A stretch of 64,000 nucleotides of DNA from assembly GCF_013167455.1 (NCBI RefSeq), contig NZ_CP038328.1; one strand, given 5' to 3'. The notes below the pieces were generated by a model. That model had not been told where the DNA came from and made no database searches. It was given only the letters and a program-made list of their open reading frames with translations. A program made the translations under genes and the position numbers. Every line of letters starts with the position of its first letter. Positions within the stretch are counted from its first letter, which is position 1. The stretch is from Escherichia coli O157:H7. Lineage in GTDB: Bacteria; Pseudomonadota; Gammaproteobacteria; Enterobacterales; Enterobacteriaceae. Below are positions 7,577 to 38,980 of this stretch, piece by piece.

Positions 7577-8304
7577 AACATCCCTCCGTTGATGGAAATA
7601 ACCTGGCGGGTGACGTAACCCGCAATATCAGACATTAAATAGCTGGCAAGCCCGGCAACTTCTTCCGCCTGGCCCATGCGTTTCATGGGGATCATCGACA
7701 TTGCCTCTTTCAGGGCGCTCTCTTCCATTTCGATCATCCCGGTATCAATAAGCCCCGGCGCGATGCAGTTGACGGTGATTTTGCGCTTCGCGAGTTCGAT
7801 AGCCAGCGCTTTTGTTGCGCCGATAATTCCGGCTTTGGCAGCGCTGTAATTCACCTGGCCGCGATTGCCCATTACGCCGGAAACCGAGGATAGCGTGATG
7901 ATGCGCCCACCCTGGCGTGCGCCGATCATCGGCATAATGCACGGCTGAATGACGTTGTAGAAACTGTCGAGGTTGGTGTGGATCACCGCATCCCAGTCGT
8001 CATCGCTTAAAGCCGGAAAAGCGGCATCGCGGGCGATCCCGGCGTTACTGACCACGCCGTACCAGGCACCGTGTTGCGCGATTTCGTGCTCCAGCACTTC
8101 CCGACACTGTTCGCGGTTTGCGACGTCGAAACTGAGCAAACGCCCGTTACCCCCATTGGCGACAATGGCATTCAGCGTTTCCTGAGCGCCTGTGGCGTCA
8201 CGGTGATAGTGAACGCCAATGTTAAAGCCGTCTGCCGCCAGTTGGCAGGCGATGGCGCGACCAATGCCTTTGCTGGCACCAGTAACCAGAACTGAACGAC
8301 TCAT
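7573..8304 (-). CDS. apeQ: 3-oxoacyl-ACP reductase (FabG-like SDR ketoreductase)
   Basis: 243 aa; N-terminal TGASKGIG Rossmann motif and SDR catalytic YSAAK; 4-bp overlap with the downstream KS. Confidence 0.8.
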   Translation of the reverse strand: MSRSVLVTGASKGIGRAIACQLAADGFNIGVHYHRDATGAQETLNAIVANGGNGRLLSFDVANREQCREVLEHEIAQHGAWYGVVSNAGIARDAAFPALSDDDWDAVIHTNLDSFYNVIQPCIMPMIGARQGGRIITLSSVSGVMGNRGQVNYSAAKAGIIGATKALAIELAKRKITVNCIAPGLIDTGMIEMEESALKEAMSMIPMKRMGQAEEVAGLASYLMSDIAGYVTRQVISINGGML

Positions 8305-26019: not shown

Positions 26020-28218
26020 TTATCTCCTGCGCAACAATCTTAACGCATTCGCTGTCACCAGCACCGTCGCACCCGTATCTGCCAGCACTGCCAGCCATAG
26101 TCCGGTCATCCCTAACAGCGTGGTGACGAGGAAGATCCCTTTCAGCCCCAGCGCAATAGTGATGTTCTGGCGGATATTGGCGTGAGTGGCGCGTGCCAGT
26201 TCAATCATTTGCACCAGACCGCGCAGGTGGTTATGGGTTAATGCTGCGTCGGCGGTTTCCAGCGCCACGTCTGTGCCGCTGCCCATTGCAATCCCGATGG
26301 CGGCAGCTTTCATCGCTGGCGCGTCGTTAATACCGTCACCGACCATCGCCAGCGGCGCATGTTGATTCAGCTCGGTCACCGCTTTGACTTTATCTTCCGG
26401 CAACAGGCCCGCTTTAAACTCCAGCCCCAGCTCCCCGGCAATTGCCGCCGCTGCGCGTGGATTATCGCCGGTGAGGATCACCCCTTTGACGCCCAGCGCG
26501 TTCAGTTCACTGATGGCAGTTGCAGCATCGGCGCGCAGGGTATCCTGCAATGCAATGATACCCAGCACGTCATCATTACGTACTACCAGCACAACCGTTT
26601 GCCCGGCGCTTTCCAGTTCATTAATCAAACCAGCAAATGCATCAGCGGGATGTTTCCCGGCAGCGCATATCAACACGCGCTCACCGTTAACCTGCGCTTC
26701 AATGCCAGACCCGACCAGCGCCCGCTGTGATTCGGCGGCGGGAATGGCGAGTGCAGCAACCTGTGCTTCGCGCACGATGGCCTGCGCCAGTGGATGCGTC
26801 GCGCCTTGCTCGACCGCCGCCGCCAGTGTCAGCAGTTCAGATTCACTAATACCCGTTGCCGGATGAATCGCGGTAACGCGCGGTTTACCGACGGTCAGCG
26901 TACCGGTTTTATCAAACGCCACCTGGGTAACACGACCCAGCTGTTCCAGCGCCGCTCCGCCTTTAATCAACGCCCCACGACGCGCTGCCGCCGCCAGCCC
27001 GGAGGTAATCGCCGCAGGCGTTGAGATAACTAACGCACACGGGCAGCCAATCAGCAGCAGCGTCAGCCCTTTATAAATCCACTCCTGCCAGCTGGTGGCA
27101 AACAGCAGCGGTGGCACCAGCGTCACCAGCAGAGCGACGGCCATAATCGCGGGCGTGTAAATACGGCTGAAACGGTCGATAAACCGCTCAATGGGTGCGC
27201 GACGCTCTTCGGCTTCTTCGATCAGTTTCAGAATCCGGTCAATGGCGCTGGCACCCGGTTCTGACAGCACTTCCAGCGTTACCAGACGGTCTACGCTGGT
27301 GGCTCCTGCAGGAACTTTATCGCCCGTTGCGCGCTCCACCGGAATAGATTCGCCGGTCAGGGCGCTTTCATCAAAACTGGCAAACGGTGAGAGCAGTTTA
27401 CCGTCGGCAGGCAAACGTCCACCTGCGGCGACTTCAATCACATCGCCAGGGCGCAGGCTGTTAATCGCCACCTCTTCCCGCTCACCGTTACGCAGGCGCG
27501 TGGCGGTTTCTGGTTTCAGCGCCATTAACGCGCTGACCTCTTGACGCGCGCGGCTGGCGGCCCAGCCTTCCAGTCGTTCACCAATCAAAAACAGCAGCAA
27601 CACCATCGCAGCTTCAGCCGTTGCGCCAATAAACAGTGCACCAATAGCGGCTACGCTCATTAAGGTTTCAATGGCGAAGTAGCTGCCGGATTTGATCAGC
27701 CGTAATGCCTGACGAGCAATCGGGTACAGCCCAACCAGCGTGGTCGCGATAAACGCCAGTTGCCCGAACGGATGATTAAATTGCTCCAAACCCCAGCTGA
27801 TTGCCATCATCACGATAAGCGTAATCAGCGGCAGATTCTCTTTCAGGCGCGATGCTTGTGGCTCGTCGGCGGCCTGCTCATCGCGCAGGGAATAGCCCGC
27901 TTTTTGCACCGCAGATTCAACTTGTGCACGGATGTCATTGTCGGCATCAACCACCAGTTTTTCGGTGGCGAACAACACCTGTACCTGATTCACGCCTGCA
28001 AGCTGGCGCACGGCATTTTCTACCTTGCGCGCACAGGCGGCGCAGTCCATGCCGCTGACTTTCCAGCTATAGCGGGTGCCGGAGACGTTTTCAGAGAGAG
28101 TTGGCGTGCTGGAACATGCGCCGTCGCAGCAACAGTCGTTGGCGTTCTGTACCGTGGTTAGCGGTTTGAACGCAGCAAATTGAGGGGCTTTCTTGCCGTG
28201 ATTGTCAGGAGTCGACAT
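26020..28218 (-). CDS. zntA: Zn/Cd/Pb-exporting P1B-type ATPase ZntA
   Basis: 732 aa; N-terminal metal-binding GMDCAAC, transmembrane CPC motif, phosphorylation motif DKTGTLT. Confidence 0.95.
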   Translation of the reverse strand: MSTPDNHGKKAPQFAAFKPLTTVQNANDCCCDGACSSTPTLSENVSGTRYSWKVSGMDCAACARKVENAVRQLAGVNQVQVLFATEKLVVDADNDIRAQVESAVQKAGYSLRDEQAADEPQASRLKENLPLITLIVMMAISWGLEQFNHPFGQLAFIATTLVGLYPIARQALRLIKSGSYFAIETLMSVAAIGALFIGATAEAAMVLLLFLIGERLEGWAASRARQEVSALMALKPETATRLRNGEREEVAINSLRPGDVIEVAAGGRLPADGKLLSPFASFDESALTGESIPVERATGDKVPAGATSVDRLVTLEVLSEPGASAIDRILKLIEEAEERRAPIERFIDRFSRIYTPAIMAVALLVTLVPPLLFATSWQEWIYKGLTLLLIGCPCALVISTPAAITSGLAAAARRGALIKGGAALEQLGRVTQVAFDKTGTLTVGKPRVTAIHPATGISESELLTLAAAVEQGATHPLAQAIVREAQVAALAIPAAESQRALVGSGIEAQVNGERVLICAAGKHPADAFAGLINELESAGQTVVLVVRNDDVLGIIALQDTLRADAATAISELNALGVKGVILTGDNPRAAAAIAGELGLEFKAGLLPEDKVKAVTELNQHAPLAMVGDGINDAPAMKAAAIGIAMGSGTDVALETADAALTHNHLRGLVQMIELARATHANIRQNITIALGLKGIFLVTTLLGMTGLWLAVLADTGATVLVTANALRLLRRR

Positions 28219-28253
28219 GGCATCCTCCGGTTAAGTTTTTTCTCATTAACCGA

Positions 28254-28285
28254 AGGATACACTCTGGAGTCGACTCCAGAGTCAA
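28254..28285 (-). promoter_or_regulatory. zntA promoter with ZntR (MerR-type) operator
   Basis: On the minus strand: TTGACT, a 20-bp spacer containing the perfect palindrome ACTCTGGAGTCGACTCCAGAGT (28261..28282), then TATCCT. Confidence 0.8.
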
Positions 28286-28291
28286 GTTTTA

Positions 28292-28918
28292 TCAGAGATA
28301 CAGCGAGCGGACGATGAGGAAGTGACCGGCAAAGTAGCAGGCCGCAGCAATCGCGTTGTCCGCACGGAAGCGTCGGCGATAGTGACTACCCAGCCAGACA
28401 AAGTTACTGATAAACAGCAACGAAGCGCCGACAAACGCAGAGAGTGCCGGAGCGGTCGGACGGAAGAACCACAGTTCACCTGCCAGCCACACCATCACCA
28501 GCGTCATGCCGATAAACGTGCAGATAGGCCAACGATACTCTTCCAGCCGCGTCCAGATAATCGCCAGTAACAGCGCACCCAGAACCAGCAACACCAGTGG
28601 CAGAGGCCAGAAGAAAGAGAGCGTCATCTGACTGGCGAAATAGATGGTGTACAGCAGGTGCGAGAGGAAAAACGCGCCGATGGCGTACATCAGACGTTGA
28701 CGTGGCAACAGGGTTAGCGCATCGCCCAGCAGTGAGGCGCACAGCCCTGCCAGCACCAGATAGCTAATGGCGTCGAACATCGGCGCTTGCCAGGCCAGTA
28801 ACAGCAGGAGAAGAAGGGTTAACGGTTTAAACACCCAGCGTTGCCAGGTTGGCCCACGATACGATGCATCCACAGATAGCCATGCGGAAAGACAGACAGC
28901 GATAAACGACCAAAGCAT
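28292..28918 (-). CDS. yhhN: YhhN-family membrane protein
   Basis: 208-aa polytopic membrane protein matching YhhN. Confidence 0.85.
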
Positions 28919-37447: not shown

Positions 37448-37870
37448 GGGTAACCCGTGTAAATCACAAAAGTGGAACCAGTGTAGCGAAATAATTTAAT
37501 CGGAGGCTTTCTCTTTTTTATTTCTTTTGGCAGGTGATTAATTTCTTAACAGCAATAATTACAAAGTTAAAACATTAGAGAATGAAAAATACCCAGCATA
37601 ATCCCCTGAATGGTAGTGAATTATTCCGCCCTTTGTGCCGTTATTTTATGCTGACAAAGGCACTTTTTTCTGTTTATCTATCAATAAATTCAGAATATTA
37701 TCTGTTCTTAATCGACTGAAAAATAGGGACTTTAATCGCTATTATCACAAAATACTGCGCTAAACCCTTAATCAGACAGGCAAAAACAGTGCAGTATAAA
37801 AAAAGAACAGTCTGATTTGTTAACACATAAAAACAAAGCAACACAACATCACGAATGGGGATTTTTGACT

Positions 37871-38980
37871 ATGAAACGGAATGCGAAAACTATCATCGCA
37901 GGGATGATTGCACTGGCAATTTCACACACCGCTTTAGCCGACGATATTAAAGTTGCCGTTGTCGGCGCGATGTCCGGCCCGATTGCCCAGTGGGGCGATA
38001 TGGAATTTAACGGCGCGCGTCAGGCGATTAAAGACATTAATGCCAAAGGGGGAATTAAAGGCGATAAGCTGGTTGGCGTAGAATATGACGACGCCTGCGA
38101 CCCGAAACAAGCCGTTGCGGTCGCCAACAAAATCGTTAATGACGGCATTAAATACGTTATTGGTCATCTGTGTTCTTCTTCTACCCAGCCTGCGTCAGAT
38201 ATCTATGAAGACGAAGGTATTCTTATGATCTCGCCGGGAGCGACAAACCCGGAGCTGACCCAACGCGGTTATCAACACATTATGCGTACTGCCGGGCTGG
38301 ACTCTTCCCAGGGGCCAACGGCGGCAAAATACATTCTTGAGACGGTGAAGCCCCAGCGCATCGCCATCATTCACGACAAACAACAGTATGGCGAAGGGCT
38401 GGCGCGTTCGGTGCAGGACGGGCTGAAAGCGGCTAACGCCAACGTCGTCTTCTTCGACGGTATTACCGCCGGGGAGAAAGATTTCTCCGCGCTGATCGCC
38501 CGCCTGAAAAAAGAAAACATCGACTTCGTTTACTACGGCGGTTACTACCCGGAAATGGGGCAGATGCTGCGCCAGGCCCGTTCCGTTGGCCTGAAAACCC
38601 AGTTTATGGGGCCGGAAGGTGTGGGTAATGCGTCGTTGTCGAACATTGCCGGTGATGCCGCCGAAGGCATGTTGGTCACTATGCCAAAACGCTATGACCA
38701 GGATCCGGCAAACCAGGGCATCGTTGATGCGCTGAAAGCAGACAAGAAAGATCCGTCCGGGCCTTATGTCTGGATCACCTACGCGGCGGTGCAATCTCTG
38801 GCAACTGCCCTTGAACGTACCGGCAGCGATGAGCCGCTGGCGCTGGTGAAAGATTTAAAAGCTAACGGTGCAAACACCGTGATTGGGCCGCTGAACTGGG
38901 ATGAAAAAGGCGATCTTAAGGGATTTGATTTTGGTGTCTTCCAGTGGCACGCCGACGGTTCATCCACGGCAGCCAAGTGA
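37871..38980 (+). CDS. livK: Leucine-specific periplasmic binding protein LivK
   Basis: Start at [11 protein letters not shown] gives 369 aa with signal peptide; first gene of livKHMGF. Confidence 0.93.

Follow-up and report, generated by a model that had tools for sequence, protein, structure and literature searches.

Positions 28254 to 28285 on the minus strand of the window (the whole 64,000-nucleotide stretch of DNA analysed here) almost certainly constitute PzntA, the sigma-70 promoter of zntA, whose MerR-type layout and operator mark it as a promoter that would be activated by ZntR. No feature of the sequence argues against this reading. The E. coli zntA promoter has been studied since 1999 (Brocklehurst et al. 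1999; Outten et al. 1999), and its dependence on ZntR is already known; to that knowledge nothing is added here. The only element at PzntA that may be new is a predicted hairpin in read-through RNA, which is considered after the promoter itself.

Read 5' to 3' on the minus strand, the locus runs AAAAC-TTGACT-CTGGAGTCGACTCCAGAGTG-TATCCT-TCGGTTAATGAGAAAAAACTTAACCGGAGGATGCC-ATG, with TCGG directly 3' of TATCCT and the zntA start codon 35 nt past the -10 hexamer (Table 1). The preliminary description had seen in this segment TTGACT and TATCCT set 20 bp apart around a perfect 22-bp palindrome. A direct count bears out the spacing, with 28254 and 28285 bracketing the promoter exactly, and the inverted-repeat finder recovers the palindrome as two gapless arms of 11 nt each (28261-28271 and 28272-28282) that are 100% complementary. 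The description had also placed the palindrome inside the spacer, which has to be corrected, since 22 bp exceed the 20-bp spacer: the palindrome takes in ACT, the 3' half of the -35 hexamer, together with 19 of the 20 bases of the spacer, and ends 1 bp short of the -10. The same looseness of phrasing is met in the literature (PMC1526738). The dyad centre lies between 28271 and 28272, at about -24.5 from the inferred transcription start. As expected for an over-long spacer, a scan for sigma-70 promoters with 16-18 bp spacing made no call at PzntA. An extended -10 is ruled out, TATCCT being preceded by GTG and not by TGn.

Table 1. Features of the zntA promoter region, in positions of the window
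Feature	Position	Strand	Basis and remarks
-35 hexamer, TTGACT	28280..28285	(-)	5/6 match to the TTGACA consensus; PMC3431237 gives the same PzntA -35
Spacer CTGGAGTCGACTCCAGAGTG, 20 bp	28260..28279	(-)	Direct count; 3 bp above the 17-bp optimum
-10 hexamer, TATCCT	28254..28259	(-)	4/6 match to TATAAT; T1, A2, T3 and T6 kept
ZntR operator, perfect 22-bp palindrome ACTCTGGAGTCGACTCCAGAGT	28261..28282	(.)	Inverted-repeat finder; equals the published consensus (PMC1526738)
Transcription start (inferred), an A 7 nt past the -10	~28247	(-)	Standard -10 to +1 spacing
zntA 5' UTR, short	28219..28246	(-)	Shine-Dalgarno GGAGG at 28228..28224
zntA CDS, 732 aa, P1B-type Zn/Cd/Pb efflux ATPase	26020..28218	(-)	NF033775, RefSeq annotation
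yhhN, 208 aa, lysoplasmalogenase, co-oriented with zntA	28292..28918	(-)	ORF list, RefSeq
15-bp RNA hairpin (predicted)	28220..28260	(-)	5' arm 28260..28246, 3' arm 28234..28220

The operator is the longest perfect palindrome of the window, the runner-up measuring 16 bp. When the bases of the window were shuffled 200 times, palindromes of at least 22 bp arose in 4 cases (about 0.02 per window); by length alone the operator palindrome is only moderately improbable, and the case therefore rests on its position and its identity. The full promoter 32-mer occurs a single time in the window, and shuffled windows held no match to it with up to 3 mismatches allowed. One other TTGAC[AT]-19/20-TANNNT arrangement is present in the window, TTGACT-20-TATCAT at 37865-37896 (+), the spacer of which is without a palindrome; it is most likely a product of chance.

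From the yhhN stop codon to codon 9 of zntA, the sequence is identical to that of K-12 MG1655, and the window thus holds, base for base, the promoter of the published ZntR work. Alignment with the characterised zntA promoter, which had been proposed as a check, gave 100% identity over the whole intergenic region. The same -35, spacer, palindrome, -10 and downstream gene are found in both, with no difference in the promoter; what sets the window apart is that it comes from an O157:H7-like chromosome and carries one substitution inside yhhN, the single difference in the 141 nt aligned. The operator matches the ZntR consensus at 22 of 22 positions, and that consensus is described with a 20-bp spacer (PMC1526738). 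Together with the identity to K-12 PzntA, this match supports the assignment to a ZntR-dependent zntA promoter. The -35 of PzntA is given elsewhere as TTGACT with 20-bp spacing, as against 19 bp in the promoters of other metal-sensing MerR regulators (PMC3431237), and the passages on this promoter in PMC3431237 and PMC7911910 credit the hexamer and spacing to Brocklehurst 1999. In Enterobacter, too, the operator is the same and the spacer measures 20 bp (PMC7911910). A spacer of 19 bp is reported for PzntA in PMC9189660; this value is ruled out by the direct count together with PMC7911910, PMC1526738 and PMC3431237, and no other choice of hexamers yields a plausible -10. As to activity, PzntA shows very low constitutive expression without ZntR; with it, low zinc reduces expression by a factor of up to about 2, and high zinc raises it about 10-fold (PMC9189660). 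That ZntR binds the present site and responds there to metal is taken from such published work on the identical sequence.

The gene downstream is zntA, as had been claimed from the promoter: its product matches NCBIfam NF033775 ("Zn(II)/Cd(II)/Pb(II) translocating P-type ATPase ZntA") over the full length with 1446 bits, above an exception-level cut-off of 1240 bits, and RefSeq annotates the neighbours as yhhN and zntA. The orientation proposed earlier also agrees, promoter and zntA both lying on the minus strand. No significant match to ZntR was found in the window by tblastn (best E = 3.2), the query being a ZntR sequence that itself matched PDB 1q08 with 204.7 bits. The lack of zntR from the window is consistent with its reported non-linkage to zntA (PMC7911910, PMC1526738); we assume that the regulator is present in this genome, encoded elsewhere on the chromosome. 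A separate resemblance concerns the first codons of zntA (codons 1-5): GTCGACTCCTGA (28205-28216, minus strand), which overlaps the ATG, agrees with the operator's right half, GTCGACTCCAGA, in 11 of its 12 bases, and many other Enterobacteriaceae show full agreement there over 12-13 nt (ATGTCGACTCCAGAG). This element could be a stray half-site, a partner of the operator left half in read-through RNA, or the relic of a duplication.

The yhhN stop codon lies only 6 nt upstream of the -35, and a terminator scan found none between yhhN and zntA on the minus strand. Given that yhhN has no other terminator and that the palindrome folds as a hairpin in read-through RNA, one might suppose that the palindrome serves chiefly as an RNA hairpin or terminator, ending or stabilising minus-strand yhhN RNA or stopping antisense transcription on the plus strand, and is not a protein operator. 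The plus-strand terminator scan does flag it, as a 9-pair stem followed by CAAGTTTTAT. In the direction of yhhN, however, the hairpin is followed by GUAUCCUUCGG, which contains no U-run, while the plus strand runs antisense to zntA over 2.2 kb, and nothing is known to transcribe towards the palindrome from that side. Moreover, the exact ZntR consensus and the fixed place of the palindrome between the hexamers are explained by an operator and not by a terminator. We regard a primarily terminator-like function as improbable; at most, termination would be a secondary effect of the palindrome. The terminator-like call itself, at 28261-28292 (+), where the palindrome precedes CAAGTTTTAT, is probably incidental, because nothing is known to be transcribed towards it.

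Regulation at PzntA would proceed as in other members of the MerR family, which occupy the spacer in both states and distort the operator in the metal-bound form (PMC9909328, PMC9189660). The two hexamers come reasonably close to consensus, but at 20 instead of 17 bp apart, the -35 and -10 would be out of phase for RNA polymerase, leaving the bare promoter very weak. A ZntR dimer would sit on the 22-bp palindrome with one helix-turn-helix per 11-bp half-site; in its zinc-free form it would hold the promoter weak and slightly repressed, and upon binding Zn(II), Cd(II) or Pb(II) it would kink and underwind the operator DNA. Such distortion would shorten and re-phase the distance between -35 and -10, permitting open complex formation and transcription of zntA. 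The PDB copy searched holds no structure of ZntR on DNA, only a C-terminal fragment of the protein (1q08, 1q09, 1q0a), and CueR, MerR and BmrR therefore serve as the models from which the geometry of distortion over a 20-bp spacer is extrapolated.

The closest system with solved complexes of DNA and RNA polymerase is that of CueR (4wlw, 6ldi, 7c17, 6xh7). PcopA/CueR likewise pairs a chromosomal MerR-family metal sensor with a P1B-type efflux ATPase and a long-spacer promoter, but differs in its 19-bp spacer, its half-site and its specificity for monovalent metals. PmerT/MerR of Tn501 and Tn21 shares with PzntA the -35 TTGACT (PMC3431237) and the placing of a dyad operator in a spacer of excess length; it too is repressed in the metal-free state and activated when the metal-bound regulator distorts the DNA. 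Its spacer, in contrast, is 19 bp, and its palindrome is shorter and different (7-4-7). In addition, merR lies divergently adjacent to PmerT and is autoregulated, whereas zntR is unlinked from zntA and no ZntR site precedes it (PMC1526738).

The long spacer and the palindrome placed in it are common to MerR-family operators (PMC1526738, PMC9189660), and the layout as such would also suit an operator for another regulator of the family, such as CueR, SoxR, MlrA or a plasmid-borne MerR or CadR. Against this stand a half-site identical to the ZntR consensus, a 20-bp spacing reported to be specific for ZntR among metal sensors (19 bp in the others), and a regulated gene that encodes a zinc exporter. 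Operation by a regulator other than ZntR is therefore very improbable.

Within the species, the promoter is close to invariant. Several E. coli O157:H7 chromosomes match the 401 bp around it at 100% identity, and the flanking genes are annotated there as yhhN and zntA. Among 5426 complete E. coli genomes, 5425 have a single copy of the 32-mer, with an identity of 99% or more in 5413, whereas the flanking 401 bp are only 95-99% identical in 4471 genomes, which indicates that the promoter is under stronger constraint than its surroundings. E. coli 14EC017 (NZ_CP024134.1; positions 121-152 of the extracted locus L202) has a natural variant of the -10, TATCTT for TATCCT, and is among the only 12 complete genomes with a 32-mer below 99% identity.

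Beyond E. coli, a DNA-pattern scan of metagenomes for the exact -35 and operator retrieved 120 loci with 86 distinct downstream sequences, a set that is silent on operator variation by virtue of how it was selected. A -10-like hexamer is present exactly 20 bp from the -35 in all 86 of these enterobacterial sequences: TATCCT in 40, TATGCT in 34, CATACT in 5, TAGGAT in 3, and four singletons. Apart from the hexamers named, the variants at this position in relatives are TAGACT, TACGCT, TATTCT and TAAGAT. In 83 of the 86, a co-oriented ORF ends no more than 60 nt before the -35, mostly 5-8 nt before it. In a ZntA protein scan of the genome collection, at least 5 close relatives were among the matches listed. 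The more distant zntA loci were identified by protein and are not conditioned on the operator. Photorhabdus zntA is preceded by TTGACT-20-TAGAGT with an imperfect palindrome, and Vibrio zntA by TTGACC-20-TACACT with the operator ACCTTGGAGTAGGCTCCAAGGT. The Vibrio operator differs from that of E. coli at mirror-image positions of both half-sites, as expected for the site of a symmetric dimer. At the locus of Vibrio bivalvicida (L004, 2755-2765), the TGA stop of a 488-aa co-oriented upstream ORF falls inside the zntA -35 (gtTTGACC), so that an unterminated co-oriented gene abutting the promoter is not peculiar to yhhN.

Several further observations were made among these relatives. On two soil metagenome contigs (L084, at 7707-7800, and L116), the identical TTGACT and 22-bp operator precede not zntA but a MerR-like ORF, which reads MET..LRIGDVARKTGL. 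Here a ZntR-type promoter may drive the gene of the regulator, in contrast to enterobacteria, for which zntR is reported to lack autoregulation. Four metagenome contigs (L101, L120, L127 and L139) represent a second zntA lineage, with the protein start MHQHHACGCG and yhhN upstream; their -10 is TAGGAT or TAAGAT, their operator is the same as in E. coli, and between the -10 and the Shine-Dalgarno they carry a different, GC-rich hairpin of 12-14 bp, CAGTAACGGGCG...CGCCCGTTACTG. An element of other Enterobacteriaceae, TAATGAGAAAATTATCATTA, which is absent in E. coli, was considered as a Fur box; this reading was dropped, with about 10 of 19 Fur consensus positions matched in a hand alignment. In Y. 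pestis, yhhN-zntA is listed in a Fur-like cluster (PMC2231364).

That a chance palindrome should lie beside chance hexamers, without any regulatory role, can be dismissed as next to negligible: perfect palindromes of this length do arise in about 2% of shuffled 64-kb windows, and the arrangement at 37865 (+) illustrates how TTGACT-20-TATCAT can occur fortuitously without one, but coincidence is contradicted by the identity to a characterised operator, by the function published for it, by conservation of the promoter above that of its flanks in 5425 genomes, and by an architecture kept out to Vibrio with symmetric half-site changes.

We now turn to the RNA structure predicted around the -10 and the Shine-Dalgarno. 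Its 5' arm, GUAUCCUUCGGUUAA, covers the -10 and the discriminator, and its 3' arm, UUAACCGGAGGAUGC, covers the Shine-Dalgarno; the stem comprises 15 pairs, including two G.U, and encloses an 11-nt loop. The predicted energy is -20.9 kcal/mol, as against -5.75 +/- 2.0 in shuffles (z = -7.5). RNA beginning at 28247 is predicted to have no significant structure (z = 0.2), with the Shine-Dalgarno free. Since the 5' arm includes the -10 hexamer, it would be absent from transcripts initiated at PzntA; by contrast, both arms would be present in read-through RNA from yhhN, a gene that stops 6 nt short of the -35 and lacks a terminator. On this prediction, the hairpin would be confined to RNA with a 5' end upstream of PzntA, for example read-through from yhhN.

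Comparative support was sought with a hand-specified helix of 18 pairs on an alignment of 45 distinct enterobacterial sequences, which are phylogenetically related and come from the operator-matched set. In this alignment, 89% of the cells of the helix are paired, compared with 27-57% if the partner is shifted by 1-3 columns, and four pairs are altered on both sides. Among the two-sided changes, U-A is replaced by G-C in 8 sequences, at a column that lies upstream of the inferred start; another replaces G-C by A-U in 4. Covariation scores 0.122, as compared with 0.078 +/- 0.005 in shuffles, and none of 500 shuffles scored as high. Cells with G.U far outnumber those with A.C (69 versus 10), which points to sense-strand RNA rather than to a DNA palindrome. 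The C-to-T change at the -10 of E. coli 14EC017 would keep its pair in the hairpin, as G.U. The GGAG of the Shine-Dalgarno is invariant in all 45 sequences; the -10 and the Shine-Dalgarno, which make up the lower stem, are each conserved for a reason of their own, and in several lineages this part of the stem contains 2-3 mismatches. RNAalifold recovered only 6 pairs, with weak energy, from the same alignment. In the four contigs of the second zntA lineage, as well as in Photorhabdus and Vibrio, a hairpin also spans the -10/+1 region and leaves the Shine-Dalgarno largely free. A search of Rfam matched no family, the only match being a sub-threshold, chance one to an miRNA (20 bits versus a gathering threshold of 80), and our literature search found nothing on a zntA 5'-UTR hairpin or on yhhN-zntA read-through. 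In array data from Yersinia pestis, yhhN-zntA is handled as a single co-expressed unit (PMC2231364), in agreement with the occurrence of read-through.

We tentatively raise the possibility, doubtful as it is, that in yhhN read-through RNA the hairpin buries the ribosome-binding site and silences translation, such that ZntA would be made only from mRNA initiated under ZntR. A comparable device is known in IS10/Tn10, where, as reportedly described by Davis, Simons and Kleckner in 1985 (cited in PMC13181058), the ribosome-binding site pairs with sequence upstream of the element's own transcription start and read-through from outside is translationally silent. In zntA, too, the ribosome-binding site would pair with sequence upstream of the gene's own transcription start. 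The two cases differ in that the one at zntA is a prediction from structure and conservation, and in that the gene is a housekeeping metal exporter and not a transposase.

Whole-cell biosensors for zinc, cadmium and lead use PzntA as a standard part. For the present locus, the main finding secures the annotation, namely the identity of zntA, its strand, and its zinc-responsive control of the MerR type, and what is of practical use is the near-invariance of the promoter in more than 5400 E. coli genomes together with the fixed 20-bp spacing across Enterobacteriaceae. If the hairpin acts as proposed, reporter fragments that include upstream transcription would under-report the promoter, and the structure would explain how a tightly controlled promoter can sit 6 nt behind an unterminated gene without leaky production of ZntA.
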